A stretch of DNA of 19,118 nucleotides from a virus (taxonomy: Duplodnaviria; Heunggongvirae; Uroviricota; Caudoviricetes): IMG/VR virus record IMGVR_UViG_2897375277_000001, positions 1 through 19,118 of that record; one strand, written 5' to 3'. Under the pieces are notes generated by a model, which saw only the letters and a list, made by a program, of their open reading frames with translations, was not told the DNA's origin and did no database searches. A program made the position numbers and the translations under genes. Position 1 is the stretch's first letter; each line of letters begins with the position of its first letter. Shown here one piece after another: positions 1-18,065 of the stretch.

Positions 1-58
1 GACTCAGATGAATTTCTTACTCTGTGGAATATCACTTAATGTCACTTATAGGTAAACA

Positions 59-703
59 ATGAAATCCGAAACGCTAACCATCCAGCAAATTTTCCAAAAT
101 CAACGACAATATCGTGTTCCATTCTATCAACGCGCCTACGTATGGACGCAACGAAACCAATGGTCAGCTTTGCTGGAGGATATCTTCGAAAAAGCACAGA
201 GCCGACTTTCGGGAACAAAACCAACCCCTCATTTCCTCGGCGCGGTGGTGCTGGAACCTCAACTAAAAAACAGCTTGTTAGGTGTAGATACCATACATAT
301 TATTGACGGCCAGCAACGTTTAACCACTCTTCAATATATTCTGGCATCCATTCGATTATCATTGCGTGCTACAGGCCTTTCTGAATTGGAAGGGTTAGTA
401 TTGACTTGCTTGAAAAATACAAACGAAGCAACGATGAGAAATAAAAAGGTAGAATGCTTCAAACTGTGGCCAACTTTTCGAGACCAACTCATTTTATTCA
501 TAGTCTTAATGTTGATAATATTGACGATCTCCGTAATGTATTTTCTGATAGCTTCACGCAAAATGGTACGTTACGTTAAACATTTCAACCACCCGCCGTC
601 ACTAGAGGCATTATGGTTTTTTACTGAAGCCTTTATAAAATGGATTAAAATAGAAAACCACTCACCACAAGAAAATGCGGTAGCACTAATTGAGGCTGTC
701 TGA
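59..703 (+). CDS. DUF262 (GmrS-like) N-terminal module of a GmrSD-family type IV restriction enzyme; probably the 5' part of one larger gene continuing at 773
   Basis: ATG at 59 with AGGT 5 nt upstream. Translation contains PFYQRAYVW and IIDGQQRLTT, motifs I recognise as DUF262. Same reading frame as ORF 773.., separated by four in-frame stops (701, 740, 746, 770). From about nt 480 the translation turns hydrophobic and junk-like while another frame reads more protein-like. Confidence 0.6.
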   Translation: MKSETLTIQQIFQNQRQYRVPFYQRAYVWTQRNQWSALLEDIFEKAQSRLSGTKPTPHFLGAVVLEPQLKNSLLGVDTIHIIDGQQRLTTLQYILASIRLSLRATGLSELEGLVLTCLKNTNEATMRNKKVECFKLWPTFRDQLILFIVLMLIILTISVMYFLIASRKMVRYVKHFNHPPSLEALWFFTEAFIKWIKIENHSPQENAVALIEAV

Positions 704-772
704 CGGAAATCTGAAACTGGTAAGCATATTTCTCGAAGCTGAAGATGATGCCAAATAATTTTGAAACATTAA

Positions 773-1781
773 ATGGCGAGGAGCGGAACTTCATGCAACG
801 ATCTTATTCGCAACTATATCTTTATGTGCGCTGAGCATGAAAATATTAATGCTATTGAATTATATGAAAATGAGTGGAAGAGCTTTGAAGATAAATACTG
901 GTCGGAAAAGCAACGCCGTGGACGTATTAATAAACCACGCATGGAGTGGCTTGTACATGCGACATTGCAATCAGAAAGGCAGCGTGAAATTGATCTGTCT
1001 CGCCTTTACAATGAGTATCGTGATTATGTAAGTAAGGACTTGCCTTCACAACGAGCAGATCTGCAAGTAAAGCGCCTCAAACAATATGCATCACAATATA
1101 AAGAATTGGTTGGTGGTTTTGGCACAACCCCCATCTCACACTTTGGACATCGCATCGCAGCCTATGATGTGACGACACTTTATCCGCTTGCTTTGTTCAT
1201 TTCGATAGCTAACATCGCCGATGATGAGAAAGCAGCCATGTATAATGATCTTGTCTCCTACGTAGTACGAAGAGCCGTATGTGGCCTGACGCCAAAGAAT
1301 TACAACAATGTATTTATGAATATATTGCGACACTTGTCTAAAACGGAAATTTCCAGTGTTGAGTTACGTAATATCCTCAATAGCTTAAATGGCGAAGCCT
1401 CACGTTGGCCTAGGGACTCAGAATTTCTCAACGCTTGCATCAATGCTCCACTTTATCCTGGCAGGCTCGACGCACCGAAAATGCGCTCAATGTTAACGGA
1501 ACTTGAAAGAGAACTTTGTCGCCAAGTGAAGACAGAAAAGCCTGATGTTCCAAATCTTTCTAATCTCGATATCGATCATCTTATGCCTCAAAGTTGGTAT
1601 TCCTGTTGGCCTCTCGAAAATGGTCATATGGTGACAAATTCAGATGCTACGGTATTGAACCAAATTGTTCTGTCTGGAACCGATCTTACCCCTGAACAGC
1701 TACTGGTAAGGAAACGGCAACAAGCGATAGCTACGTTGGGAAATCTAACTTTGCTTAACCTTAGCGTAAACCGTTCTGTTC
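773..1781 (+). pseudogene. GmrSD-family type IV restriction enzyme, central region plus DUF1524 nuclease domain, interrupted by IS66 after nt 1781
   Basis: Translation contains DIDHLMPQSW and GNLTLLNLSVNRSV, typical of DUF1524. The six-frame ORF continues to 1912, but 1782..1912 is IS66 terminal sequence; the native frame resumes at 4232. Confidence 0.65.
1774..1781. repeat. Left copy of 8-bp target-site duplication TTCTGTTC flanking IS66
   Basis: Identical octamer at 4224..4231 immediately outside the other IS end; 8 bp is the duplication size known for the IS66 family. Confidence 0.85.
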
Positions 1782-1818
1782 GTAAGCGTACAGCGAGGGC
1801 CGTATTGACGGGGATGTG

Positions 1819-3357
1819 TTATTCAGCTGGCAGTGCTATGCGCCACGGAAGCAGTTCGCTGACCCGGTTGACCGGCCAGTCTGCTATGACGCCAAGCACA
1901 TGGCGAAGGTAGCTTTCTGGATCCACGTCATTCAGTTTGCACGTCCCGATCAGGCTGTACAGTAGCGCTCCCCGCTCACCACCATGGTCAGAGCCGAAGA
2001 ACAGGAAGTTTTTACGACCCAGACTGACCGCCCGCAGGGCATTTTCAGCGATGTTGTTGTCGATTTCCACCCAGCCATCGTTCGCATAGTACGTCAGTGC
2101 CGGCCACTGGTTAAGTGCGTACGCGAACGCCTTCGCCAACTCTGAGTGTCGCGACAGGGTCTTCATCTTTTCACGCAACCAGCTTTCCAGGGATTTCAAC
2201 AGCGGTTTCGTTTTTCGCTGACGTTCAGCAAGCCGCTGCTCTGCCGGCATTCCCCTTATATCCGCCTCTATGGCGTACAACTGACCGATCTGCTCCAGGG
2301 CTTCTTCCGTCAGTGCTGACGGGATGCGGACGTGCACATCGTGGATCTTTCGGCGGGCATGAGCCCAGCAGGCAGCTTCCGTTATCCCACCATTGCGATA
2401 CAGCTCGTTGAACCCGGCGTACGCATCCGCTTGCAGCACACCGCTGAAGCAAGCAAGATGAGTCTGCGGATGGATGCCTTTCCTGTCCGGGCTGTAAGCG
2501 AACCACACTGCAGGTGCCAACGCTGACCCGGCATTGCGGTCATCACGAACATACGCCCACAACCGCCCGGTCTTCGTCTTCTTATTACCCGGCAGCAGTA
2601 CCTGGACCGGGGTATCATCGGCATGGAGTTTGCCGTCAGTCATGACATAGCCATGAAGCGCCTCTTCCAGCGGAGACAGCAGCCGGCAGCATGCATCCAC
2701 CCAGCCCGACAGCAGTGAACGGCTCAGCTCCACACCTTGCCGGCCGTATATTTCTGACTGGCGATACAGCGGGGTGTGCTCTGCATACTTCGAGGTCAGC
2801 ACGCGGGCCAGCAGCCCCGGTCCGGCGATACCCCGCTCGATGGGCCGCGAAGGTGCAGGTGCCTGCACGATGGCATCGCACTGAGTACAGGCATGTTTTT
2901 CCCGTACCGTCCGGATAACCCGGAAGGCGCTACGCATCAACTCCAGCTGTTCGGCGGTATCCTCGCCCAGATAGCTCAGTGAACCGCCGCAGTTCGGGCA
3001 GCACGGCGCCGCAGGCAACAGTCGCTTTTCGTCACGGGGTAGTGATTCAGGGAACGGCTTACGGGTGCGGGTCTGACGCAACGGACGCTGTACTGCCGGG
3101 TCATACACCCTACCAGTCAGCGTATCGCTCTCTTTCTGAAGCCGGTTCAGATCGGCTTCCATTTGTGCGATACGGCGGGAGACTTTTTCGGAACGACTGC
3201 CGAAGTTCATCCGGCGGAGTTTATCCAGCTGCGCCTGCAGATGGTCTATTTCGCGCTCCCGGTTGCTCAGCTTTTCCTGCAGGGCGTGGATCAGCGCTTC
3301 CTGTTCGGCCAGGCGCTGTTTCAGCAGGAAGATGTCGTCAGAAGAGATGTCGTTCAT
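1819..3357 (-). CDS. tnpC: IS66-family transposase TnpC
   Basis: 512-aa uninterrupted ORF; translation has the cysteine-rich region (CCPNCGG...CTQCD) and overall character I recognise as IS66 TnpC. Confidence 0.9.
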
Positions 3358-3406
3358 AAGCCCGTATTTTACCGGGCTTATTCTGTGACAACCAGGATAA
3401 AGAGAT

Positions 3407-3754
3407 TTACAGCATGGTCAGGGAGGTCAGCAGCCGCTTAGGCTGTCGCCAGTCGATACCTTCCAGCAGCATCGCCAGCTGCGCCTGCGTAAGGAACACT
3501 TTGCCATCACGGGCTGACGGCCAGGCGAAGCGCCCACGCTCCAGCCGTTTGGTCAGGAGGCACAGCCCGTCACCGGTGGACCACAGCAGTTTAACCTGAC
3601 TGCCGCTGCGGCCCCGGAAAATGAAAACATGGCCGGACATGGGATCGTCTTTCAGCGCCGTCTGTACTTTCGCAGCCAGGCCGTTGAAGCCATTTCTCAT
3701 ATCGGTGATACCGGCAACCAGCCAAATTTTGGTCCCGGAAGGTAACGGGATCAT
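3407..3754 (-). CDS. tnpB: IS66 Orf2 (TnpB)
   Basis: 115-aa ORF directly upstream of tnpC, 4-bp overlap with tnpA, size and position typical of IS66 orf2. Confidence 0.85.
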
Positions 3755-4152
3755 CGCTTCAGTTCCTGTATCAGCAGAGTCAGGAGCTTTTCGCTGACAT
3801 TGCCATTGAAGCGGAGCGTCCCGTGCCGGAACGTTACCTCACAGCTGATACTGAGGGTTTCCGGGTCCTCTGCGAGCGATTCTGGCTGTTCGGCAGCTGC
3901 ATCGAGAGTCACAGGAAGTAGCTGGGGGCTCTCTGAAGAAGGTAATAGCAGCTTTCCCTTGCGCCATTGTTGTCGCCATTTGAACAACAGATTGGCGTTA
4001 ATGCCATTTTCAAGAGCAAGTTTTGAGATGGATATCCCGGGTTCACAGGAGGCAGCAACGAGCTGCTGTTTAAATTCGGGAGGATAATTAGGGCAGCCTT
4101 TTCGCCTGCCGGGAGTCACATTTTTCTGCATATCTGACACTTTGGTTCCCAC
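3751..4152 (-). CDS. tnpA: IS66 Orf1 (TnpA)
   Basis: 133-aa ORF at the 5' end of the IS operon; the true start may be an internal Met. Confidence 0.8.
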   Translation of the reverse strand: MGTKVSDMQKNVTPGRRKGCPNYPPEFKQQLVAASCEPGISISKLALENGINANLLFKWRQQWRKGKLLLPSSESPQLLPVTLDAAAEQPESLAEDPETLSISCEVTFRHGTLRFNGNVSEKLLTLLIQELKR

Positions 4153-4223
4153 TACTTATTTGGTGGACACCACTTTGTCTAATTCGTCAGATTCTGACCA
4201 GACGGTTCAGGCTGTACGCTTAC

Positions 4224-4231
4224 TTCTGTTC
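4224..4231. repeat. Right copy of 8-bp target-site duplication TTCTGTTC flanking IS66
   Basis: Identical to 1774..1781. Confidence 0.85.
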
Positions 4232-4395
4232 AGAATGCTGTATTTCTGAAAAAACGTGATGCTCTCATCGTCCACACCAATCTACGACTGAACATTCCAC
4301 TTATAGTTAAGGATAAATGGGATGAGGATGAAATCCTGGAGCGGGGTAAAAAGTTGGGGGAAATTGCATTGAAAGTATGGCCAAAACACGATTAA
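4232..4395 (+). pseudogene. Displaced 3' fragment of the GmrSD-family gene (54 codons plus TAA stop at 4393..4395)
   Basis: After removing the IS and one duplication copy, codon cgt-tct-gtt-c|ag joins in frame and reads ...GNLTLLNLSVNRSV-QNAVFLKKRDALIVHTNLRLNIPLIVKDKWDEDEILERGKKLGEIALKVWPKHD*. It has no start codon of its own, so it is absent from the ORF track. Confidence 0.7.
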
Positions 4396-4418
4396 TGCAA
4401 TTAATAAAATAATTATAA

Positions 4419-4440
4419 CGGCCTTACATTAGTAAGGCCG
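4419..4440. terminator. Putative bidirectional intrinsic terminator hairpin
   Basis: Perfect 9-bp stem (CGGCCTTAC / GTAAGGCCG) with 4-nt loop ATTA, 24 nt after the restriction-gene stop; AT-rich on both sides (T-rich when read on the minus strand). Confidence 0.4.
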
Positions 4441-4490
4441 CTACTCACTATTAAATCCTTTAATTTGCATCAAGAACAGCAGTGTCAGCC

Positions 4491-4619
4491 CTAGGTCTCG
4501 GACTTTGTACCGCTTATCTTGTCTTCAAAAATCAGCTCGCATCCTGCACAGTTCAGCGCATTACGTTGTAGATCTGTGTTCTGGTCATTTATTGATACGC
4601 GTACATAGCCAATAAGCAT
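4491..4619 (-). pseudogene. Remnant of a Pin/Gin/Hin-family serine DNA invertase gene (first 42 codons only)
   Basis: Minus-strand translation from ATG at 4619: MLIGYVRVSINDQNTDLQRNALNCAGCELIFEDKISGTKSET*. This matches the N-terminus of Pin/Gin invertases as I recall them, including the catalytic-serine motif YVRVS. Only about 95 bp separate its end from the restriction-gene stop, so the remaining roughly 150 codons cannot be present. Confidence 0.75.
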
Positions 4620-4645
4620 AGTGGCTCCCTCTGACAAAAGCAGGA

Positions 4646-4981
4646 ATGATGCCATTTGCTCGTTATTTCTGCATTTTCATAAACGTTGGTTTGGGAGAAG
4701 GTGCTAACTGGGTTATGTTACCTGGAGGAATGATAATTCAGCGTGTTTATCTTGGATTTCCTGTCGGCACCAATGTAAGACACATAACTTTCCCCCGGTC
4801 GTTTACAACAACGAACTATTCCATCTCAATTAACTGGAATGATATCGGTACTGTAACAACTGAAACACAATCGCCAGCAAATGTGGCGGTTGTTCATCAA
4901 ACAAAATCATTAACAGGGGCCAGCATCTGGCAGGCAGGTCCCGGGGGATTTAATGTGGACATTATAGCGGTGGGGTATTGA
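4646..4981 (+). CDS. Alternative tail-fiber C-terminal cassette, silent in the current orientation
   Basis: The crossover site 4674..4699 lies within codons 10-18; it is followed directly by a Tfa gene and converges on the expressed fiber/Tfa pair, the G-segment-like layout. No fiber N-terminal constant region is attached. Confidence 0.55.
4674..4699. repeat. Left crossover site of invertible segment (12-2-12 invertase site, core TT)
   Basis: TTTTCATAAACG-TT-GGTTTGGGAGAA. Its inner half is the exact reverse complement of 6510..6521; the overall form resembles hix/gix-type sites. Confidence 0.6.
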
Positions 4982-4982
4982 T

Positions 4983-5411
4983 ATGTACGTATGGAGCGCT
5001 AAAGCAAATGGCTTTTTCCCCATATCGGAGAAAGAAAAATTTGAGGCATCAGGTCTGTGGCCTGATGATGGTGTAATAGTCAGTGAGGAAGAACATAAAA
5101 AGTTATTTACGGATATTCTACCAGGAAAACAGATTGGAACACTGAATGGAAAACCAGCACTGATAGATATTCCTCAGCCGACCAAAAAGGAATTAATAGC
5201 TATTGCTGAAGTTAAAAAATCCCAATTACGGGAAAAAGCTGACAGTGAAATATCCTGGCGTCAGGATGCTGTTGATGCTGATATCGCAACTGATGAAGAA
5301 ACTTCAACTCTCACCAAATGGAAGAAATACCGTGTGCTGCTGATGCGTGTTGATACTTCAACAGCACCCGATATTGAATGGCCTACGCCTCCGGCAGTTC
5401 AGGCCAGATGA
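4983..5411 (+). CDS. Tail fiber assembly protein (Tfa), alternative copy
   Basis: 142-aa ORF ending ...[23 protein letters not shown], the conserved Tfa C-terminal pattern. Confidence 0.8.
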
Positions 5412-5988
5412 CATCCGGCGTGGTGCTGGTATCTGTTACCGTCACCGCGTCAATGTAATCCAGCACGGCGTTAAGTCGGGTTGTTTCTGCCTGCGTCAGC
5501 TTCCGCCCGGCCTGTAATTTCAGTTGAATCAGACTGATGGAAGCCATTGCAGCATCAATCAGCGACTGGCGCTGTGCTTCTGCCGCGTCTACTGCGGCAC
5601 TATGCTGTGCCTCAGTATCTGTCACCCATTTCTCACCATCCCATTTATCGTATGGCGTTAACGGGACGATAGTGGTTGTATTTTCAGGGTAATCACCCGG
5701 AGCTGTGATTTCTTTTGATTCTCCCGTTTCGGTGTTATAGACAACTTCACCGCGATGGTCTGGCACATATTCCCATGAGTTTAAATCTGCCGAACGGCAG
5801 ATTGCATAACCAACCTTATGTGTGCCAGGAGCATCTAAACAGGAATATGCAGGGATACCGACACCCACAGCAAGATATTCAGTTGATGCAGAAATATACT
5901 CCCGTGTCTCACTGTCATAGTTATAAACGGTAATCTCTCCTGCCTTTGTGGCAATAAATTTATTATTTAAGATGGCGTTATACATCAT
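5383..5988 (-). CDS. Tail fiber assembly protein (Tfa), expressed copy
   Basis: 201-aa ORF ending ...[18 protein letters not shown]; start overlaps the fiber stop (ATGA); 3' end overlaps the convergent Tfa by 29 bp. Confidence 0.8.
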
Positions 5989-6812
5989 GCAGCCCTCACA
6001 ATGTAATTAAATGAAATATTACGTGGGCGTGTCTCTGCTGCACCGACAATACTGGTACTCAACCCCGTTGCCGTTCGTTTGTTATTTTTATTTCCTTCAA
6101 TCAGACAGTTGTAATCATCATTACCAATTAACGAATTGGTGGCATCAATACTGTCCGGGGACAAGGCATTAGTTGTGGAACTTAAAGTCAGCATCTCGTC
6201 TGAACTTGGAAGATTTTTTAATGGTGTTTCATTGCGTGAAATACCCGCGTAAAAAAAGGACTCATGCCTGTGAGCTTCAAAAGAGTCATTCTGAAGACTT
6301 AGCAAGGCTCGCCCCGCATCCACTCCACGTCCATCATCCCAGCCACGAATAAATTCACCGCGTAAATCAGGCAATTTATTGGTCGGGTAAGCCTTTGCCA
6401 GTTCCGGGTATTCTTCAGCAGAAAAAGCCGCACCATTGCATTTCAGCCAGCCTGTTGGCGGAGTGGCTGAAGGCCACGGAACAGGCACCCCAACCGGTAA
6501 TGCAGAGCCTTCTCCCAAACCAAGGTTTTCGAGAGCTGTTTTCACCGTGCCATCCGATTTGATATCGCCAAACGGATTCTTGCGGCTTAACAGCAGCGCA
6601 CGAAGCGCGGTAAGCAACTGGTCGTGCCGCGCCTTCTCCAGGCTGGCACCGGAGGCCTCCACCACGCTGCAGAGTTCTTCCTGCAACATGTCAAAGTAGT
6701 CATCATCCAGATCGGTGGCAGGCGTGCCTGTCTGGGGGTTACCACGGGTAAAACCGTTCTTACCCGGGCCGAACTTATCCTTCTGCGCGGTTTTCGTGTC
6801 TATACGATGCAT
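5985..6812 (-). CDS. Tail fiber protein (constant N-terminus plus variable C-terminus currently in the expressed orientation)
   Basis: 275-aa ORF with GGAG 7 nt before the ATG; the C-terminal region has [19 protein letters not shown], which resembles the receptor-binding region of Mu S / P2 H-type fibers. The crossover site 6510..6535 lies inside the gene. Confidence 0.75.
6510..6535. repeat. Right crossover site of invertible segment (12-2-12, core AA)
   Basis: TTCTCCCAAACC-AA-GGTTTTCGAGAG, which closely resembles the hixL sequence as I recall it (TTCTTGAAAACCAAGGTTTTTGATAA). Confidence 0.6.
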
Positions 6813-6815
6813 GGA

Positions 6816-7400
6816 TTACTCCGGATATTTAAAAATTACGTAGGTATGCGACGGGCAGAGTTTGTTAAGCACACATTCGACGACGGTGTCGCCCCAGACA
6901 CGCAGCGCGGAATCACAGGGATCGCCACATGTCATCCAGGTGGTGTTGGTGGCGGCTGGCATGTTGACCTGCCAGTAATACCGCCATTCCGGCGCATTCA
7001 CCGCGTCAGTACAGGCAGATGAGCAGGTGAAAGTGCTTTTATCGTATCGCGTGATGGTGGCATCCGGTCTGCCCAGGGCAGCAAGCTGTGCAAGGTAAAA
7101 ATCCTCATTGATGCCGCCCGCCAGATTAACCTTCGCATCCAGCCGTTGCTGACGCTGGCGAAGGGTCTGCGTTCCCGCCGGAATACATTCATCCGGCAGG
7201 CCGCACAGACGCTCCCAGCGGTTTATCAGTTCAGTGGTGGTGCGCGGATCCAGCTCCCGCATCAGGGCATCCGCACGCTGATGAACGCGGGTTAATGACG
7301 GTGCCGCACCGGCAATCGCCGGATCGCTGACTGACCACGCCGGACCGGGCGGCAACAGTGCCGACAACAGACGGATATAATCATCGTTTGTCACGTCCAT
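6816..7400 (-). CDS. YmfQ/DUF2313-family tail protein (Mu gp48-like)
   Basis: 194-aa ORF between the baseplate J-like gene and the tail fiber, overlapping its upstream neighbour; composition and position fit. Confidence 0.55.
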
Positions 7401-8449
7401 GAAATCGTCCCCAGAACTGCCAGCTCATTTTTTGCAATGGAGATATTGTCCGCCGGGGCAAGCAACTGATGGCTGTATTCCCCGTTCGCACCGGAAATCG
7501 CTTCACTGATACGTGACACCTTCAGTTCTCCCTGCGGATAACCATCACGCAGCAGGAACGAACGCAACTCCGCGGTGATGGCGGCTCGTATTTCCGGTGT
7601 ATCCGGCGTCACACGGATATGAAAATCCACTTTATGCGCCACCGGCCTGAATACATACAAATCAGAGCCTGCCACCGGGGCCAGTGGCTCGATATGTTGT
7701 CTTGCCGCCGTTTCCGTTGATTCTTCCGGAATGGGATTAATCAGGTCACTGCTGGCAATCATCACACCGACAGTTCCCGTTCCCATCCAGTGACGGTATG
7801 TCCATGCGCGGGTAATGCCGGGCACTTCTTTAGCCCAGACGACATAGTCCCCGTCAGCCCCGCCCTGAGGCGTCCAGTAATACCGCTCAATGACGCGGGC
7901 GCGCCACGTTTCCAGCTCTTCAGTATCAAATCCACCTGTCAGGGTATCTGCCACGCCGGAAGACGGCAGACCATTCACCGGCGTGACCAGGATTAATGAC
8001 GTACCGTCGTCAGCGTTACCGACCGCGCCTGCACTTGAGCAGGCGATCGGCACGCGCAGGACACCACCGGAGCTGGTTGCATCGGCAGTTGCCGTGTACT
8101 GAACCAGGTCATCGCGCTGAATAACACTCCCGGCGGTCACCTTCAGGCCATCGCTGACACCTTCCCAGCGCATATACCCGCTGGCAGTCGTGGCCCCCTT
8201 GCGCGGACACCGTTTCATCGCAGCATGTCGCGCCAGCCAGGACTCATCGCACAGGTCAGGCAGCATGTTCATTGCCAGATAATCGATGTACCCGTAAACC
8301 GTATGCAGCGCCGCCGCATACACCTTTGCCCGCACGTCTTCATCCATGCGCCGGAGCGTGTCGCTGACGTCCAGCCTGGCGAATAAATCGTTACGGAGCA
8401 TACTGATATTTTCTGCCAGCGTCGGGCGCTGAAATTCACTGTCCGCCAT
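7391..8449 (-). CDS. Baseplate J-like protein (Mu gp47 / P2 gpJ-like)
   Basis: 352-aa ORF in the expected position, 14-bp overlap with the upstream gene. Confidence 0.7.
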
Positions 8450-8864
8450 GCATTATCGCACTCCACAGATCATCAAAAGAAATCATTACCGGTCCGTCAC
8501 GACGCCAGAGAGTGATACTGTTACCCAGTTCATTAATCCCGGTGCGGCGGATATCCAGATCAATACGGGACACCACACCGTCATCAATCATCCATTGCAG
8601 GCATTCGCGGATATACCCCCTTACCGTCTGCACCAGCTGATTGGTCAGTTTGCCGCGCTGAAGCAGCCACAGCCGGGAGCCGTAACGGTCATTCTGTACC
8701 GCAGGCCAGGTATCCCCCCACCATCCCATCGGGACGTCGGCATTGTCATCAGGCTCCGCCCGCCGCCAGGTAAACAGGGAAATCACCACGGCGCGGGTCA
8801 GCGGATCCAGCGGTGCGCTGGCGCAGGTGCGTTTACCGTTCACCGTCAGCCACAGTTCCATCAT
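8436..8864 (-). CDS. Phage GP46-family baseplate protein
   Basis: 142-aa ORF, overlapping neighbours on both sides, expected position after the spike gene. Confidence 0.6.
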   Translation of the reverse strand: MMELWLTVNGKRTCASAPLDPLTRAVVISLFTWRRAEPDDNADVPMGWWGDTWPAVQNDRYGSRLWLLQRGKLTNQLVQTVRGYIRECLQWMIDDGVVSRIDLDIRRTGINELGNSITLWRRDGPVMISFDDLWSAIMHGGQ

Positions 8865-9409
8865 GCCTCCATCGCTTTATCCGGTTTGTCGGTGTTACTG
8901 CCCTGACCGTTCTCTCTGTGACGATGGCCGTTATAGGCAAGCCGCATCGCTGACATGGTGGTGCCGCCGGAGTCGCACAGGTCTTTCACCTGTCCGGTCA
9001 CTTCCAGGTCCATTTCAAAACGTGCTTTAGGTGAATTGCGAAACGTGATCGTTTTACCTGCACCGTCCACCACGATCCCCTCCCGGGTCAGCGTCACGGA
9101 CTGCCCCTGATCGTCATAGACAGCCACCTCACCCGTCTGCAGCCCTTTCAGGCGGTAGCGCCGGTCCGACACCGTAACAACCACCGCATGAGAACGGTCG
9201 CCATCCGGAAACAACACCACCGCTTCCGCACCGCTGTTTGCCCTTGAGGTAAAACCGTAGGGTTCAAGATGTTCAACCCCTGCTTTGGGTTCACCGGCAA
9301 TCAGGGACACATCCACGGTCTGACATTTCGTGGCGGCACTGATGCTTTTCACCACGGCCCGCCCAATCAGGCCGAGGAGTTGTCGCTGCATGGCTTCAAT
9401 CGTCCTCAT
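8861..9409 (-). CDS. Baseplate assembly protein V / spike (Mu gp45-like)
   Basis: 182-aa ORF; the N-terminal pattern MRTIEAMQRQLLGLIGRAVV...EPYGFTSRANSGAEAVVLFPDGDRSH is typical of the phage baseplate V family. Confidence 0.7.
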   Translation of the reverse strand: MRTIEAMQRQLLGLIGRAVVKSISAATKCQTVDVSLIAGEPKAGVEHLEPYGFTSRANSGAEAVVLFPDGDRSHAVVVTVSDRRYRLKGLQTGEVAVYDDQGQSVTLTREGIVVDGAGKTITFRNSPKARFEMDLEVTGQVKDLCDSGGTTMSAMRLAYNGHRHRENGQGSNTDKPDKAMEA

Positions 9410-10488
9410 CAGAACGGATCCTCCTGTACTCTGGCTTTTTTCTTTTTCCGCGAGCCGGGGGCTTCGGGTTCAGGCAGATAAGCATCAGGCGGGCCGACAC
9501 GGATTTCCGTCAGGGTGCCGTTCTGGTCCTGAGTAAACGTGACTTCCGAAACAAGCAGTTCGGTATTGTCGAAACCACAGACCGGATCGAAGACAATCAC
9601 CCGCTGGTTGGGCTGCCACAGCGTACCGTTACCCTGTCGCCAGCCCTGCACCACATAGGTGGTTTCATCCGTCCGCGCCGCCCGTTGCCGGGCTTCAAAG
9701 TCAGCACGGGCAATACAGCCTGCCCCCGTGGCCTGCCCTGTCTGCCTGATATACATCGGACGGTAACGGGCAATAAATGCGTCCTCTGTGCGGGCCCGCA
9801 GCGCGGTGGTGGTGGCCTCACCGAAATCATCGTCGTTTCCGGCACGCTGCCCCGCCACCTGGTAAACTGAAAACCGCTCCCGGATACTCTTCTCCGTATC
9901 ACAGGAAAGGATGTTTTCCCCAAGTACCAGCGCGGTATGTGCCCGCGTTGAGCCAATACCGCCAATCACCAGCCTGCCGTGCGGGTCGTCATAAGCCAGC
10001 GCCTGCTGCTGACCGAGTATTTTGTTGATTACCTCAATCACCGTTTCACCGTGATCAGGCTGGACATCAGGAATAACACCCGACGGCGCACCGCTGTTCA
10101 CCACCTCAATGCCGAAAGGCGCAGCAAGCGCCTGCGCAATCTGTACCAGCGATCGTCCGTTAAACTGTGTCGGTTCGGCTGCACAGTCAATCAGGTCAGC
10201 GGTCAGACTACGTCCGGCAATACCGGTGCTGACCGAACGGGCATCGTAACGAACGGGCGTCGCCTCCACCCAGCCAGTGATCACCAGCTCATCACCAATC
10301 AGCACTTCCACTTTTGAACCGTTTTTAATGCGCGGCTGAAGCGTGGTGATACCCTCATCTCCCGGCCACTGGCGGGTGATCTCCACACTGAAATCCCGCG
10401 CCAGTCGTTCAACACCGGCACCGATGCGCACCGATGTCCAGCCATTCCACTCCCGGCCATTTACCCGTAGCGTGACGTTATCGTTCAT
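9409..10488 (-). CDS. Mu P (gp44)/P2 gpD-like tail protein
   Basis: 359-aa ORF, gene order and translation character. Confidence 0.55.
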   Translation of the reverse strand: MNDNVTLRVNGREWNGWTSVRIGAGVERLARDFSVEITRQWPGDEGITTLQPRIKNGSKVEVLIGDELVITGWVEATPVRYDARSVSTGIAGRSLTADLIDCAAEPTQFNGRSLVQIAQALAAPFGIEVVNSGAPSGVIPDVQPDHGETVIEVINKILGQQQALAYDDPHGRLVIGGIGSTRAHTALVLGENILSCDTEKSIRERFSVYQVAGQRAGNDDDFGEATTTALRARTEDAFIARYRPMYIRQTGQATGAGCIARADFEARQRAARTDETTYVVQGWRQGNGTLWQPNQRVIVFDPVCGFDNTELLVSEVTFTQDQNGTLTEIRVGPPDAYLPEPEAPGSRKKKKARVQEDPF

Positions 10489-11812
10489 TGCACTGGCACC
10501 TTCAGAGGGATCACCGGCACAAAGCCGGGATGCGTAATGGCATTACGCCGGATAATGTCCCCGTCACGCGCCGCGTTATCAAACCAGGTCGCCGCCAGCA
10601 CCAGCGCGGGTAAAACCTCATCCGGCGTGCGCTGAATGATCCGTGCAGACTGTTCAAGGCGCGTGTTGATATCCGCATTCAGATCTGCTTTCACCCGGCG
10701 CAGCGCCAGAAACAGCGCATCACTGGTTGTACGGGACAACTCCTTATCAATTGCCGTATTCAGTGTGTCGCGAATGTCAGTCAGTTCTTCCCACGTTGGC
10801 AGGTCAACCGTGCTTTTCACCGCCGGTGCATTGTTCAGTGCCGGATGCGTGACGGAAGGCCAGCCAGTGCTCTGCGCGGGTGTTGTTGCCTGCCCCACTG
10901 CGGCATTCTGCATCACCGCGGAAGTTGTTGGCGCAGGCAATCGGGTGACGGCATACGCCGCTTCGCTGATTGCGGTCGTACGAAGGATGCTGGCAACCAC
11001 GTTACGCTGCTGTGTCGCCGTGGCGGTGGTTTTACTGTCCGTTTTCCAGACGCCGCGCGGTTGCAGATCGCTGCCAAGGCTGACACCGGAAAGCGTTTTG
11101 ATCATGGTGACCAGGTCGCTGGCGTTACCATAAAGGCGTTTCCCGGTACGCCACATTTTCTGCACCTGCTCAACGAAATTTTTGCCTGACGATGGCGGCG
11201 GCAGAAGTACCGAGATATCCCCTGCAACAGCCTGGCGGCATCCGATACGGCAGAATCCACCACTTTCATCGCATCAGAAACATACCCAAGCATTGTGCCG
11301 GCATTACCGACGACGTCGTTCTGCACAAAATCTGCCACGCCATCGATACTGAAACTACTGAAACTGTCACTGATGCAGTCATCCAGTGCAGAACAGGATG
11401 ACATCAGCGTCTGCGCCGTCGCCGCACCTGATGTGGGGTAAGAGAGTTCTCCCGCTTCGACAAACTTCAGGTCAAAGCGGACAATACGCCCTTCACTCTT
11501 CGATGTGCTGACCCGAACCTCTCCGTCAACACAGACTTTCAGCTCACCGTAAGTCGGATGGACAAGCGTGCCAGGACCGGGTTTATTCAGCGCGTCAATC
11601 AGGCGATCGCGCTGGTCAAAGCAGTCATCTCCCACCACATAAGCCGTGATGGACGGGCGGAAAGTGATTTTCCCCAGGTCTTCGGTATAGGGTTTGTCGC
11701 GGTTCGGGTATTCGTGCGTTTCCACACGACGACCGGTTCCCGTACTTTCTTCTTCAACCTTAAACGGCACACCGCGAAATGACGCGTCCTGAAGTCTGTC
11801 TTTCCACGTCAT
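10485..11812 (-). CDS. Mu N (gp43)-like DNA circulation protein, with an apparent frameshift near 11219..11222
   Basis: Likely start is ATG at 11812..11810 (MTWKDRLQDASFRGVPFKV) with GGAG 6 nt upstream. The frame of ORF 11102..11854 turns junk-like after ...SDAARLLQG, and the neighbouring frame reads on as DISVLLPPPSSGKNFVEQVQKMWRTGK...; the switch is at a CCCC run (plus strand). Confidence 0.55.
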
Positions 11813-11827
11813 ATAAACTCCGTACAT

Positions 11828-11849
11828 AAAAAATCCCACCGGAGTGGGA
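11828..11849 (-). terminator. Putative intrinsic terminator/attenuator between tape measure and N-like genes
   Basis: Minus strand reads TCCCAC-TCCG-GTGGGA followed by TTTTTT, 24 nt after the tape-measure stop. Confidence 0.45.
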
Positions 11850-11872
11850 CTCATTAACAGATTAATTTTTCA

Positions 11873-13696
11873 TTACCTGCCAAAGCACGTATAGCCAACA
11901 TCATGGCTGACATCAAAACCGCTGGATCGCGTTTCCATAACCCGCATCCCCGGAGGCGAATTCACAAAAGAGACCTTGATCTCACCATCAACTTTTGGCG
12001 CAGAAGCTTTGTTAATCATGAAGGGATTCGAGCCTGTGGCACCGGAGGCGTTGTTTGACTGAGCCGGATCCACCGCCGGATAAGGTGTGTATCCCGCGCC
12101 GGTATTCCCGTCCCATAAGCATCATAAGCACCCGCGCCCCACTGCGCAGAGTTAATGCATCGACCGTGTCACCGGAACTGTCGGTAAACCACTCAATAAT
12201 TGGCTTCAGCTTGTCCCACATATCCTGAAACCACTTAACAACCGGTCCCCAGTTATTGATCACCATCCCCAGCGGCGACCAGGCAAAAACCTTCTTAAGA
12301 AGTTCCCAGCCAGTCTCAAAATAAGGACCAATGGTTTCCAGAGTTTCTTGAAATAAGGTCCGACAACATCCCAATTAGTGATAATTAATCCCGCAGCCAG
12401 GGCTATCGCCGTCGCAATCATGCCAATCGGCGTCATCGACATGATCCTGCTGACAATACTGATGGCACCGCCAACGCCCATCAATCCCAGTTTCAGAATC
12501 GCAAGACCGGCAGCAAGCCCGACGACACCGCGAATAACCCGGGGATTTTCATCCGCAAACTTCGTGAATTTTTCCCCTAACTCCCCCAGCCATTGCGTGA
12601 TATTTTTGGCGTCACCAGAAAATGCGCCGCCAATAGCCGCAAGGCCGTTAGTTGCGGTCCCCGTCATTGCCTCCCACAGGTTGGACAGCGTACCAAGCTG
12701 GGCCTGAACACGTTTATTCAGGCTGGCCTGTTTATTCATCTTCTGCTGGATCTGATCGTAGCCATCCTTTCCTTTATCGATTAGTGCATTGACCACCTGA
12801 AGGGTTTCGGCATCATCACCAAATATTGCCTTAAGTACACCTGTTCGCTTAACGTCGGTCAGTTTTCGCAGCTTTGCCAGTTGCCTGAACATGTTATCAA
12901 GACCGCCAAAACTTCCTTTGCCGTCAGTAAAATCGAGCTGTACCCCGAGTTTCTGGCGGGCCATGACTTTATTGACGTCCCTGATTTTCTTAACGCTTAA
13001 TCCGGACTGGATAACTTTTCGCAGGGCATTACCTGCCGACTCCCGTTCATCCCCATCTGATCCATCATAACGCTGATGGGGGCAAGGCTCTGTGCAGCCT
13101 GAAGACCGTCCTTGTTCACCATCTTCAGAACAGAACTGGTTTTAGTGAAGAAGGACAACATGTTGTATCGTCAACGCCCAGATAAAACGCCTTCTGGATA
13201 GTGTCGAACAGCCCCATCATGTCTTCTGACGCCGTTCCGGTAGCATCCTGCATCTTTGCAGCAAACTCAGCAGCCGCTTCCGGTGTTTTTTCAGTTGTAC
13301 CGCAAGATAAGCTGTCGCTTTACCCACACCGCCAAGAATGTTTTCTGCGGGATCCCTGACGCACCAGCATCTGCATCATGTTCTGGAAATCAGCCGTTGT
13401 ACGGGTAGCTGGTTACCCAGGCCAATAGCCAGTTTATTGATGTCCTGAAAGCGCTTTCCGACCTCACCGTTCGCATCCATCATGGCAACTTTCAGCCCGT
13501 GGCGGCGTTTTCCTGATCGGCATAAGATTTCAGGAAAGCGTCAGACCCGCAGCCAGTCCGCCACCAAGCGCCAGCCCACCCTGTGACGCTTCTTCCGCCT
13601 GGCGTTTAAATCCCGGATTTTCTTTTGCATTTTCGACAGCGCGGGAGAAAGCCTGTCGACACCGGTGATCAACGCCTTAAGCTCAAATTCAGCCAT
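11873..13696 (-). CDS. Tail tape measure protein, with multiple apparent frameshifts
   Basis: Start ATG 13696..13694 (MAEFELKALITGVDRLSPALSKMQKK) with GGAG upstream. ORFs 12260..12964, 12012..12374 and 11873..12073 are successive pieces of one protein in different frames; 12965..13696 has no ORF of 60 aa or more in any frame yet reads as tape-measure sequence across frame switches. Confidence 0.6.
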
Positions 13697-13835
13697 GTGT
13701 GCGTTTCTCCTGCTCTATCCTGTTTGCCTGACTGACCAGCAAGGAATTTCACTGATCGGCATATTCAGCAATTCGAAGGGATTAATGCGCCAGTAGCTGC
13801 GCAGTCAAAGAAGCGATCAGTGAGGTATTCAGCCG

Positions 13836-14102
13836 TCAGGCCTGGAGGAAAAAACCGGCCACAAGCCACGCCGCTGCATTCAGGTCTGCCGGAGACATCT
13901 GGTCGACAGAGCTTTGCGGCACTTTCGCCAGCCGCACAATGTATTTCGACACCACATGCGCCAGAAGTCTGACGGACTCATCCTGATTCATCTGGTAGGG
14001 ATACCCAGCTCGCGGACATCCTTCCGGTGGTTCATCAAACTCCAGTACGGAGAGTGTCTCGCCATGAGCAATAATCGGTTTCTTTAACTCAAGCTCTTTC
14101 AT
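13836..14102 (-). CDS. Tail assembly chaperone (Mu gp41 / P2 gpE-like)
   Basis: ATG at 14102..14100 (MKELELKKPIIAHGETLSVLEFDEP...); lies between tube and tape measure; carries a slippery heptamer 2 codons before its stop. Confidence 0.55.
   Translation of the reverse strand: MKELELKKPIIAHGETLSVLEFDEPPEGCPRAGYPYQMNQDESVRLLAHVVSKYIVRLAKVPQSSVDQMSPADLNAAAWLVAGFFLQA
13848..13854 (-). other. Candidate programmed -1 ribosomal frameshift site T-TTT-TTC in the chaperone gene
   Basis: Minus-strand zero-frame codons GGT-TTT-TTC immediately before ...LQA-stop; the -1 frame stays open for 29 more codons to a TGA at 13765..13767. Confidence 0.4.
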
Positions 14103-14454
14103 TACTGGTAATCCCTTCTTCACCGTGGAACTCAAGATCAACCGTGCCTTCTTCGGCATTATGGTTCGCTTCGCCGTGCAGCCAGGCAGACGACAGTACA
14201 TAGACCTGACCGTTCGCCAGCTCGGCAGTGATTGTCATCTCATCAGACGAGGTGATTTTGCTCACCGGAAAATTCTTCGCACCTTGAAGGTCCCTTTGAC
14301 ATAAGGCGCACGGTGAGTTTCCTTGCGGTCCACTGAACCGTCCAGGCCGATGATGTCATCATTGACCGTCCTGTTCATGGCACCTCAATGCCGCCGGTCA
14401 GCGATAGCTGCTGACCGTCAATTTTGAAATAACAGGTTCCCCGATACGGGCCAT
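14089..14454 (-). CDS. Tail tube protein, with apparent frameshifts
   Basis: Start ATG overlaps the sheath stop (TAATG at 14457..14452). Translation pieces MARIGEP..., FKIDGQQLSLTGGIEV and TVNDDIIGLDGSVDRKETHRAPYVKGTFKV fall in different frames; one switch is at a CCCC run at 14439..14442. Confidence 0.45.
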
Positions 14455-16072
14455 TATGCGGACTCCTCTGAATACTGAAGACGGAACTGGTTAACCACGG
14501 CAAAGACACGCAACTGGTTAACATAGTCAGGCGGGAACAGCGTGTTCAGGCGGTTCGGATCGCTGGCATCACGCTCCACAACCAGGTACTGCTTAAAAAG
14601 TTCGTAGTTTTCCACGATCCCGCACGCTCAAGCTGACGGTAGGTTGCCAGCAGTTCCCTTTGATCACCGCCTGGGTGACAATCGCCTGACCGGACCAAAG
14701 CGGTACCGTCGCTGGCAAGCTTGTGACGCCCGTACTTACTGGTAATGACGGATTTCAGTTTGCGCAGTACATACGCACTGGTATGCAGCGTCTCGCTGTC
14801 GAGGTAGCTGTTATCCGCAACCCCGTAAGCGTTTTTCCTGTACGTGGTGACATCACGCTGAATGCGCAGTACCCGCTTTCGACATACGCCGTTGCCACGC
14901 CATGAGACAGCAGGGTCTGTTGTTCGGTCATCGTGAACCGTTTCCCCTTCGGCGCAGGCAGCATACCCACCAGCTCACCGTCTGCGTGGACGTGCCGGAT
15001 CGTTGCGGATAAACACCGCTGCGCGGGCGGTACGGCTTGCGCCAGCTCGTCGGCAGCGTCTGGTCTCTTTTCGTACCCGCCAGGGTAATGTGCTGCTGGT
15101 TAAACTGGTCACCTGCGTCACCAGTTCTGACAGCGTGCCGATCTTTGCCGTATACACATGACCATACAGCTGACGCGCATAGCTCCAGCGACCGCTGGTA
15201 TCGTTCATCTCGGTCACCAGCGTGTTAACGGAGCCGTGTCGTTGAACGGCAGGCCGATATAATCAAACGGCTCATCCGCCATTGCAGCCACCGCGCCGGT
15301 GAGAACAGGAGAACCCGTTCCGGCGGTACCCGTCGCCACGGCAATCTGTACGCCGCTGGCAGCACTTCGCCCCACCAAGCCGTAGTAATTGAGGCTGACA
15401 GGAATTTCATTCCGCAAAGCCCTTATGACGCGCGGTCAGTGTGACCACGCCAGCGAAGATGAAGCTGTAAACGCAGAGTCGGAACGGCATTGATGGCATC
15501 CTGGATACTGCCGGCAATCGTCGCGACGTTATCGCCATTGGTCACCGGTGCCTGCACGCGGGTACGTCCACATAAACATTCACCGTGCGGTTTCGGTTGC
15601 CGCCCGGTCACCGTCAGCGTAACCGTTGCCGCCGCGCCTGTGGCTTCCGGAACGGCAATCACATACAGCTCGCAAACGGGTCAGTCTGGCGATAAGCCTC
15701 GACCATACGCGCCAGCTGACTTCCCGCACCACAAATCTGGAGTGCATAGTCTGCCGACGGCATCAGTACCAGACTGTTGGCAACAATCTCTGCACCGTTA
15801 TTGCATGACCAATCAGCAGCGATGCTCCGCTGTCCTGTGCAGTATTCGCCGCCTGGTTATCCATTTCCGCATAAACAACGGAACCAGCGTATTCGACGGA
15901 ATGGTGTTAAAGCTTATCGTCATCGGTATTCACCTTTTTATTCACGCGCCGGATATCACCCGCTGCTTCACGGCGCAGCCAGTAGTTGTTCTCGTCAACA
16001 TTTCGCCCTTCGCGGCAAAGGTCGCCGCGGCAGGGTCAGGAACTGACCGCCCTTTAACAGGTTGACAAACAT
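14455..16072 (-). CDS. Tail sheath protein, with multiple apparent frameshifts
   Basis: Start ATG 16072..16070 with GAGGA upstream. The translation across frames reads ISFNTIPSNTLVPLF-YAEMDN...NTAQDSGASLLIGHAIT... and MTEMNDTSGRWSYARQLYGHVYTAKIGTLSELV..., which looks like a contractile sheath. Only ORFs of 80 aa or less survive in this 1.6-kb stretch. Confidence 0.55.
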
Positions 16073-16074
16073 GA

Positions 16075-17130
16075 GGATCCTCAGAAGGAAGGGTTATTTC
16101 GGTGTGATGTTCGATATCGCCGTCAGGCCGTTACGGGCTCGAGATAATCAACATCAATCGCCAGCGTTTGCAGTTCATCCAGACTGTTCAGATCATCCTG
16201 CTGGCGGGTATCGTCTTCAGTCAGCTCGCTGATGACCGAAAAATCGAACTGATAAATCAGCTCATGACGATTCAGATCCAGCAGCGTGCCGCCGTCATAG
16301 GTAATCGGGTTACCGCACGCCTCCGGGTTCCAGCCAGCAGAGCCTTAAGAGCATCTGCGGACATCGTCCACCACATCATACGAGGCAAACTGACCGCGCT
16401 CATCACGCCCGTTACTCAGTATGACAACCACGGAGAAACCTCTTTCAGCTCCTGCAGTAGTCGGTCTGGCTTTGTTTCTCCCGAGAATCATCACCCGGTA
16501 CAACATATGCCGCCGGGAGTTTCAGCTTCCGACCTCCGGCAGATTTTGAACTGGGCGCGCCTGCAACCCGGTTTTCAAAATACGGACAGCGGGCACGCAG
16601 TGCAGCAATAACAGGCGTCAGTTTCATCTGTGTCGTCGCTCCGGCTTCAGTGATTACGCAATTCCGCGCCAGAAAATAGCGTGTCCAGCTGCGGTTCTTT
16701 TCAAGAGTTTCCACCATGAAGTTATTACGTGGAGCCAGTCGCCAGCCGCTGCCACCGGATGCACCACGATGATGGCTGCGACGACGCTTTGCCCTCTCTT
16801 CACGCCATAGAACAAAAAGCCGGATAAAATCACGGTGATGCGGCGTTTCCCTCACCATTACGCTGGTTAGGGGCTATACGAGCCATAAACCGGGCGATGT
16901 TTACTGGCTCTGGGTACCATATAACCAATCGAACGTGCCAGGCGTCCGGTCTGATAACCGGGGTTTTCACCCGGTGCCGACCGCGCACGGCGCATCACAG
17001 CCGACGGCATCACGCATATGACGCTGACCAATCGTGACAAACGCCGCCGGACACGGGCGCGGTTAAAGCGCATCTCCGCGGCTGCTGAAATCAACGTGCA
17101 AAAAGGAAGTCGCCATTGTTGCCTCCGTGA
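16075..17130 (-). other. Fragmented minus-strand virion morphogenesis / tail completion genes (not resolved)
   Basis: Protein-like minus-strand translation in pieces across frames (for example ...GNPITYDGGTLLDLNRHELIYQFDFSVISELTEDD...), with no long intact ORF. Confidence 0.3.
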
Positions 17131-17136
17131 CTCTGC

Positions 17137-17499
17137 CTACATTCGCCCAGCTCCGTACACTCCAGCAGCAGAAAGCGCCGCGCACCGTTCAGATCGCGCT
17201 GACGTTTCACCGGTACACACTATCACCGCAGACCACCTCATAATCAGCGGTGATCCCCCGGCGGTAGCGAATGGTGATGTAATGGGTGATGGCGTCTCCG
17301 GTCTGCGCGGTTTCCTGCCAGGTGGTGGCACTGGTCTGGACAACCTTCGCCCATGCCGGAACGCAACCGGGTATTGAGGCTCCACGCCAAAGTTATCCGA
17401 GGGCATATCCACCCGCTGGCGGATCAGGACGCGTTTATTCAGTTCGCCGGGGTCCGGCAGAATGTAGGTTGCGCTGGTCTGCGCCTGACGAATTTTCAT
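17137..17499 (-). CDS. Head-tail adaptor / head closure protein, with apparent frameshift
   Basis: N-terminus MKIRQAQTSATYILPDPGELNKRVLIRQRVDMPSDNFG resembles the adaptor family; the ORF then turns proline/arginine-rich and junk-like while another frame reads TGDAITHYITIRYRRGITADYEVVCGDSVYR. Confidence 0.4.
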   Translation of the reverse strand: MKIRQAQTSATYILPDPGELNKRVLIRQRVDMPSDNFGVEPQYPVAFRHGRRLSRPVPPPGRKPRRPETPSPITSPFATAGGSPLIMRWSAVIVCTGETSARSERCAALSAAGVYGAGRM

Positions 17500-17817
17500 T
17501 GCGGAAAGTACCTGTACGGGCCGACAAGCCAGCCAAAACTCTGCGGCATGTCGAGTTTCTCCACTTCCGTAACCGAAGAGCGGTTTTCGTAAAAATGGCT
17601 GATAAGCATCAGCATCCCCAGACGAATATCATCGGTAGTGCAGCCCGTCCGGATCGCTGTCCGGAATGGTTTCATCCGGTGCATAGAGCTTCCGGTTCAG
17701 ATACGTTTCCGTCCGCTTTTGTGCCGCACATGCCAGCAGTTGCAGATGGCGGTCATCAGTATCGAAATCCTCATCCAGCCGGAGTTGGGCTTTAATCTCT
17801 TCCATTGTCAGAAGCAT
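17496..17817 (-). CDS. gp6-like head-tail connector protein, with apparent frameshift
   Basis: N-terminus MLLTMEEIKAQLRLDEDFDTDDRHLQLLACAAQKRTETYLNR (ORF 17629..17817) and C-terminus ...DDIRLGMLMLISHFYENRSSVT...GPYRYF (ORF 17496..17684) are in different frames. Confidence 0.55.
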
Positions 17818-18016
17818 ACTCAGCCCTCTTTACTGGTCGTGGCTTTTTCTCTTTTGCCGCTTTACTGCTTTTTGCACTGATTCCGCGCTCTGCTAACCCG
17901 GCCTGAAGTGCAATCTCCTGCACCCGGGCAGGAAGCGCCCCGTCGTCATACTCACCCCGAATGACCTCAACACGCATACCGTCCGGTGACCATTTCAGAT
18001 CTTGTTTCAGGATCAT
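17792..18016 (-). CDS. Hypothetical small phage protein downstream of the capsid gene
   Basis: 74-aa ORF with ATG 18016..18014, overlapping the connector start; no recognisable motif. Confidence 0.3.
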   Translation of the reverse strand: MILKQDLKWSPDGMRVEVIRGEYDDGALPARVQEIALQAGLAERGISAKSSKAAKEKKPRPVKRAEYASDNGRD

Positions 18017-18038
18017 GATTCTTCACCCGTCAGAACAG

Positions 18039-18058
18039 GGGGCGCGGTTCCGCGCCCC
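18039..18058 (-). other. GC-rich stem-loop immediately after the capsid stop (possible processing/stability or attenuating element)
   Basis: GGGGCGCGG-TT-CCGCGCCCC, a perfect 9-bp palindrome (effectively 8-bp stem with 4-nt loop), starting 7 nt after the capsid TAA at 18066..18068; no U-run follows on the minus strand. Confidence 0.4.
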
Positions 18059-18065
18059 TGAGTGA

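Follow-up and report, generated by a model that had tools for sequence, protein, structure and literature searches.

A tail-fibre inversion switch of the e14 P-segment type with a truncated invertase gene, and its two orientations among related prophages

Inversion by the Din family of serine invertases requires two inverted sites on one supercoiled molecule, an enhancer in cis which is bound by Fis, and the enzyme itself; when it is supplied in trans, the enzyme works for Gin, Cin, Pin and Hin. The G segment of phage Mu with its invertase Gin and the C segment of P1 with Cin have the same architecture as the locus we describe here: a constant fibre N-terminus, two C-termini with their assembly genes on opposite strands, and crossover sites of the 12-2-12 form. 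Prophage e14 of Escherichia coli K-12 has its P segment and the invertase PinE (Plasterk and van de Putte 1985 and Mehta et al. 2004, both as cited in PMC4272514). Our subject is a P segment found in IMG/VR virus record IMGVR_UViG_2897375277_000001 (Caudoviricetes), in a stretch of 19,118 nt which we will call the window. We identify it as the inversion switch, of the P-segment type, of an e14/SfV-like prophage; it belongs to the Din (Gin/Cin/Pin/Hin) family. An earlier note on this DNA, made from the sequence alone, had recognised a Gin/Pin-type invertible tail-fibre segment; its identity is borne out, specifically as the e14 type. This kind of system is known from textbooks, and the locus adds a further member to it by its combination of alleles and its invertase-less state. 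We consider it quite probable that the locus is an orphaned switch, which can still be flipped in trans.

Comparison with e14 gives both close likeness and clear differences. The two 26-bp sites are base for base those of the K-12 P segment, and the gene order and the 29-nt overlap of the two tail-fibre assembly (tfa) genes are also the same; the segment has 1797 bp in K-12 and 1836 bp in the window. However e14 has mcrA and a full pin gene, while in the window only the first 122 nt of pin are left and a GmrSD/DUF262 gene stands in the place of mcrA. The long cassette and its fibre are a mosaic when compared with K-12 StfE, with 55% identity. The short cassette is gp53-like: apart from the motif GLGEG it has nothing similar to the C-terminus of K-12 StfP, and between its Tfa and TfaP there is 33% identity. 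The window prophage keeps a complete Mu-like tail module, which e14 has lost in K-12. The orientation is also opposite to that of the K-12 reference sequence, with the constant part of the fibre continuing into the collar cassette. In Mu and P1, as in the window, the invertase gene adjoins the segment on its outer side and begins about 67 bp from the site. The Mu gix sites have cores TC/GA instead of AA and different half-sites, with an AAACC arm in common; the window segment is shorter and its invertase is non-functional. In Salmonella, Hin acts on hix sites with a Fis-dependent enhancer and flips a promoter, whereas fibre cassettes are flipped in the window. There is a precedent in that species for the flipping of a segment by an enzyme which is not its own, since Fin, the invertase of a prophage, recombines hix sites from another place in the genome (Kutsukake et al. 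2006, cited in PMC4272514). The trans-acting enzyme is known there, while here there are candidates for it.

Another relative is pro483 (NC_028943), a P2-like phage from avian pathogenic E. coli with an invertible fibre segment in positions 1517–3446 of the pro483 locus. Its invertase-side site is identical to the left 26-mer of the window, its fibre-side site has the same inner half-site and core, and its tfaE and collar cassettes are related to those found here. It differs from the window in being a Peduovirus, with a different fibre N-terminus and an intact invertase. Cassettes like those of pro483 are also present in many Klebsiella phages. An e14-identical site with related cassettes in a P2-like phage, together with similar cassettes in Klebsiella phages, indicates that the switch module circulates among unrelated tail types.

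Crossover sites and fibre cassettes

The switch and the remains of its invertase gene are made up of the following features:

4674–4699: left crossover site, invertase-proximal, pix type, 26 bp (12-2-12), TTTTCATAAACG-TT-GGTTTGGGAGAA, core TT in 4686–4687
6510–6535: right crossover site, inside the fibre gene, 26 bp (12-2-12), TTCTCCCAAACC-AA-GGTTTTCGAGAG, core AA in 6522–6523
4687–6522: invertible segment, 1836 bp, from an in-frame inversion in silico and a natural inverted recombinant in strain MEI148-20EC
5985–6812, minus strand: assembled tail-fibre gene, 275 aa, Pfam Collar (E = 1.6e-15)
6522–6812, minus strand: constant fibre N-terminus, 97 aa; the variable C-terminus has 178 aa with a tail-collar domain
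5383–5988, minus strand: TfaE-like tail-fibre assembly chaperone, long variant, 201 aa, Pfam Caudo_TAP (E = 1.4e-30)
4646–4981, plus strand: silent orphan cassette, an open reading frame (ORF) whose first 14 aa are a leader supplied by the pin-side flank, the other 97 aa being an alternative fibre C-terminus
4983–5411, plus strand: Tfa chaperone, short variant, 142 aa, Pfam Caudo_TAP (E = 8.6e-33)
4498–4619, minus strand: stump of the pin invertase gene, nt 1–122 of 555, 41 codons including Ser9, followed by foreign DNA with a stop at 4491
4535–4598, minus strand: predicted recombinational enhancer, placed by homology to pinE/gin and by geometry
4584–4598 and 4535–4549: Fis-like 15-mers GTATCAATAAATGAC and GTGCAGGATGCGAGC, centred at 95.5 and 144.5 bp from the middle of the crossover site

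Within the sites lie the repeats TTGGTTTGGGAGAAGG and CCTTCTCCCAAACCAA; inversion of the K-12 P segment has been demonstrated at these repeats (Kirigo et al. 2025, PMC12529663). Their inner half-site and core form the 14-mer TTCTCCCAAACCAA, which has two exact inverted copies in the window, one in each strand, when 0.01 are expected; none of 200 shuffled sequences had two copies. The two inverted 26-bp sites with matching inner halves which the earlier note had described are confirmed in their positions. Their cores TT and AA are the same dinucleotide once the sites are aligned, and an inverted-repeat search gave arms of 21 nt with 95% complementarity. We found no third site, which would indicate a multi-inversion system: a 19-mer search of the window with up to three mismatches returned just these two. 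The sites are perfectly kept across lineages whose adjoining DNA has diverged by 3–7%.

The right site lies in the minus-strand fibre gene and the left one in a plus-strand ORF. Both encode G-L-G-E-G in frame; our check of the ORFs agrees with the earlier reading in this respect. The core AA corresponds to positions 2–3 of the fibre codon Leu97, and the core TT to positions 2–3 of codon Val14 in the orphan ORF. When 4687–6522 is inverted in silico, an uninterrupted fibre of 194 aa replaces the one of 275 aa. The in-frame exchange of a 178-aa C-terminus, as it had been anticipated, is found, but the short part has 97 aa (194 minus 97) and not 94. Inversion exchanges a Collar domain in the long variant for a Gp53-like_C domain in the short one, each variant with one Caudo_TAP gene. 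The Gp53-like_C match of the orphan ORF (E = 6.8e-6, 27 bits) is above the curated cut-off of 24.9 and answers the doubt that this ORF might be unrelated to fibres; in RefSeq its product is also named a gp53-like domain protein. As the earlier note had it, each variant has its own Tfa; their genes converge and overlap, with 29 nt common to both. The long one has about 90% nucleotide identity to K-12 tfaE. The silent cassette and its Tfa are both intact ORFs.

The orphan switch would work in the following way. A constant N-terminus of 97 codons is joined at the 26-bp site to one of two cassettes, each formed by a C-terminal receptor-binding part and its own Tfa chaperone. In the window the long collar-type cassette is the assembled one, giving the fibre of 275 aa and the Tfa of 201 aa. 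Inversion across the 2-bp core would give instead the gp53-like variant of 194 aa with the Tfa of 142 aa. The resident pin gene was destroyed by cargo replacement, from which both sites and the first 122 nt of pin survived. Such a segment cannot flip itself, but a compatible Din-family invertase from elsewhere in the cell could flip it.

Loss of the invertase and orientation among relatives

Homology to K-12 pinE and Mu gin runs from the ATG in position 4619 of the minus strand down to 4498. The ORF in 4491–4655 matches the Pfam Resolvase N-terminus (E = 1.1e-7) in positions 2–47 of 145 only, so that no DNA-binding domain is left, and RefSeq labels the stump as an incomplete recombinase. The 5' end of pin is 94% identical to that of K-12; the stump differs from the intact K-12 pinE in only two positions in the window. 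The truncation of the cis invertase, which had been proposed in the earlier note, is thus clear. No full-length small serine invertase is found beside the segment, and the locus is a substrate rather than an autonomous switch.

That part of the gene in which the enhancer of Hin-family systems lies is still present in the stump, and a Fis-dependent enhancer is predicted there by homology. The predicted element lies wholly within the 122 nt that remain, with another 37 bp beyond it, in a stretch which aligns with pinE and gin. We assign its two 15-mers as putative Fis sites from homology. Their distances from the site, 95.5 and 144.5 bp, may be compared with about 99–100 bp for the 65-bp element in hin, which is the published enhancer position used for this comparison.

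The loss of pin was an exchange of cargo, in which its 3' 433 nt and mcrA have been swapped for GmrSD/DUF262, one type IV restriction cargo for another. One joint is inside pin at nt 122, the other at a fragment of icd. Between them K-12 has 1.6 kb with the 3' part of pin and mcrA (locus excerpt L003, 6808–8410), whereas E. coli H22, the nearest complete genome, has 2.8 kb with the DUF262 gene (L001, 3436–6274); the corresponding stretch of the window is 4225–4498. We have found the truncation joint in 289 of 5426 complete E. coli genomes, in prophages at two attachment sites (icd and ssrA). This abundance and the presence of the joint at the second site, ssrA, indicate that the truncation is old and widespread.

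The same invertase-less locus is found in both orientations. Strain MEI148-20EC has the same stump, the DUF262 flank and the same cassette pair, with a segment which is 99.5% identical but inverted. Its junctions are exactly at the core, as predicted, and its annotated fibre has 194 aa. Its flanks are only about 97% identical to the window (the segment comparison is locus excerpt L002, 3001–4848, against window 4681–6528), which suggests that whole cassette pairs may be exchanged between related prophages independently of their flanks. For the cassette pair of the window, the full inverted junction is carried by three genomes, and the window orientation by five invertase-less genomes. The latter are close relatives with the same stump: H22, LST200A, SOI121 and two OZ records.

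A larger sample is given by the prophages of the sequence type 95 (ST95) group, which have the same stump with another cassette pair. Twenty-four genomes, APEC O1 and PMV-1 among them, have the junction in the orientation of strain IHE3034. When the inverted junction was built in silico from IHE3034, it was matched in 79 genomes, among them UTI89, S88 and NU14; the 60 genomes listed are all 100% identical over 863 nt. We compared the flanks in the 40-kb loci of UTI89, IHE3034, APEC O1 and APEC E16002. In UTI89 and APEC E16002 the 1927-bp segment is the reverse complement, without any mismatch, of the one in IHE3034 and APEC O1, while the flanks of about 38 kb show only 0–2 private single-nucleotide polymorphisms (SNPs) or indels. 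Since the truncation joint is common to all of them, and a truncation occurs on one molecule in one orientation, at least one inversion has taken place in ST95 after the invertase was lost. Serotypes O1:K1:H7 and O18:K1:H7 both include strains of either orientation, a hint that inversion may have occurred more than once.

The earlier note had considered the segment as locked, presumably frozen unless another invertase acted on it, and had asked for other isolates to be compared for both orientations. Both have been seen, in MEI148-20EC and in ST95 (79 against 24 genomes). The alternative contemplated in that note, that relatives never show the inversion and do not conserve the sites, is not what we find: there are inverted relatives and the sites are kept. 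The truncated cis invertase stands, but from these comparisons a locked state is not supported as a general property of the invertase-less arrangement. The reservation about another invertase appears to describe what happens, with inversion after truncation on near-identical backgrounds.

Candidate invertases and alternative explanations

A donor of invertase could be a co-resident or incoming phage of the P2-like, Mu-like, P1-like or e14-like type, or possibly PinQ/PinR. The invertase of pro483 is 86% identical to PinE; a megablast match of the pro483 type is present in only a few ST95 chromosomes. PinQ expressed from a plasmid raised inversion of the e14 P segment to 88% (PMC12529663). We searched for a second invertase by blastn, with 1 kb of DUF262 joined to the invertase genes as an anchor and one place listed for each record. 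A second pinE/gin-like match was found on the chromosomes of UTI89, IHE3034 and NU14, and a pinQ-like match on those of S88 and APEC O1. Extra matches are present in 6 of the 8 genomes with the rarer orientation and in about 22 of 41 with the other, a slight excess which is not significant. Flipping in ST95 may be occasional and depend on transient sources of invertase.

The locus might instead be a truly frozen relic in this genome, either by lack of a compatible invertase or by damage to the enhancer, with the long fibre fixed and the second cassette decaying. We find this possible but doubtful. Several observations agree with it, or in other ways weigh against an orphaned switch which is flipped in trans. 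The cis invertase is down to 41 codons and no invertase is found in the 19-kb window. The five closest relatives with the same cassettes all have the window orientation, and the inverted state of this cassette pair is found only in relatives with flanks diverged by about 3%. Many ST95 chromosomes, in both orientations, have no pinE-, gin- or pinQ-like gene detectable by blastn (PMV-1, GN06489, ZJ3920 and UM146 are examples), and their flips may be old or rare events. The flanks of the four 40-kb loci contain no informative SNPs which would separate one flip from several. In the predicted enhancer, which we place by homology and geometry, the putative proximal Fis site of the window has T in place of C at its centre. 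Finally, in K-12 with pinE deleted the segment is reported to be locked although pinQ is present (PMC12529663). Native levels of a distant invertase may thus be insufficient; the result fits either a dominant role of PinE or the loss of the enhancer along with the gene. A frozen relic is difficult to reconcile, however, with the two orientations on essentially identical invertase-less backgrounds, with an intact silent cassette and Tfa, and with sites perfectly kept where the adjoining DNA has diverged. We infer that site-specific flipping in trans, with a working enhancer, would apply also to this genome.

Other explanations are less probable. Orientation could vary among the relatives by RecA recombination at the repeats of 16–21 bp, or by replacement of the whole segment from another prophage. 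The junctions would indeed look the same wherever in the 16 identical bp, core or not, the crossover took place; the identities of MEI148-20EC, 99.5% in the segment and about 97% in the flanks, suggest movement of cassettes between prophages, and the same cassettes are present in P2-like and Klebsiella phages. But RecA recombination usually needs repeats at least as long as these, and yet the two states are found in a proportion of 79:24 within one clonal group. The inverted ST95 segment has no mismatch in 1927 bp and its flanks are identical, which shows that nothing was imported; we regard this origin as very unlikely. A role on the side of the host seems equally improbable. In K-12 the chimera StfE2, formed by the stfE leader and the StfP C-terminus, blocks adsorption of T2 (Kirigo et al. 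2025, PMC12529663), and the orphan ORF in 4646–4981 is its topological equivalent, with the same leader and an intact frame, so that it might be made and alter the sensitivity to other phages. Its C-terminus, however, is unrelated to K-12 StfP, and a simple scan of 4230–4760 gave no sigma-70-like promoter for it in either strand. As for a chance origin, with accidental repeats and ORFs unrelated to fibres, it has practically no probability: it is ruled out by the shuffled sequences, the e14-identical sites, the fitting Pfam domains and the natural recombinants.

Prophage setting and meaning of the switch

The surroundings of the switch contain the following features:

6816–7400, minus strand: ymfQ, Mu gp48-like baseplate gene, Pfam Phage_Mu_Gp48 (E = 3.5e-26), also from the annotation of strain H22
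4415–4444: hairpin of 13 pairs with T-runs, between the convergent DUF262 gene and pin stump
4225–4395, plus strand: 3' end of the GmrSD/DUF262 gene, in place of the 3' part of pin and mcrA
1782–4223, minus strand: IS66-family element, 2442 bp, with terminal repeats GTAAGCGTACAGC and an 8-bp target duplication TTCTGTTC

The fibre gene starts 3 nt downstream of ymfQ, a position which places it at the end of a Mu-like tail operon, and the gene order is ymfQ-stf-tfa-tfa-stf'-pin, as in e14. The region of ymfQ and the fibre N-terminus has 96–97% nucleotide identity to Shigella phages SfV, SfI, SfII and SfIV. From 6318 to 19118 the window matches the homologous prophage of UTI89, in its tail and head module, with 97% identity. 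These identities point to a prophage of the e14/SfV-like type, with a contractile tail like that of Mu. The nearest complete genome, H22, has 99.9% identity, and its locus is annotated in RefSeq as YmfQ, a phage tail protein, two tail fibre assembly proteins, a gp53-like protein, an incomplete recombinase and a DUF262 protein. In H22 a fragment of icd adjoins the DUF262 gene, while the window itself ends inside the prophage; the prophages of the ST95 relatives UTI89 and IHE3034 are integrated at ssrA instead.

The hairpin is probably a bidirectional terminator for the DUF262 gene and the pin stump. The IS66-family element has three ORFs, including a DDE_Tnp_IS66 transposase of 512 aa. It splits the GmrSD/DUF262 gene in this window only, and the locus of H22, otherwise 99.9% identical, does not have it; it is context and not part of the switch. 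When compared with H22 the DUF262 gene also has at least seven single-base indels in window positions 1–800 (22, 485, 576, about 704, 752, 774 and 799), which break it into ORFs 59–703 and 773–1912. They are either real pseudogenisation, besides the insertion, or homopolymer-type sequencing errors in the assembly.

A more ambitious interpretation is that invertase-less P segments, instead of decaying, are kept as listening switches, which retain both crossover sites and the 5' stump of pin with its enhancer and flip only once another phage or prophage brings in a compatible invertase or is induced to make one. We consider it unlikely, but it would have clear consequences if it were true. Superinfection or prophage induction would then change the fibre of the prophage, or the orphan Stf made by the cell, as phage defence or as bet-hedging of the host range, with one mobile element controlling another. 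The role in defence which has recently been claimed for inversion in e14 could be tested in strains which naturally have no cis invertase.

The annotations phage tail protein, gp53-like protein and partial recombinase, found in about 5% of complete E. coli genomes, correspond to one inversion switch, and differences in orientation at such loci should not be taken for assembly errors. What is modestly new is the evidence at the population level, drawn from lineages of extraintestinal pathogenic E. coli such as UTI89, IHE3034, S88 and APEC O1, that a switch without its own recombinase still changes state in nature. Cross-talk of invertases between co-resident mobile elements is likely to be common.

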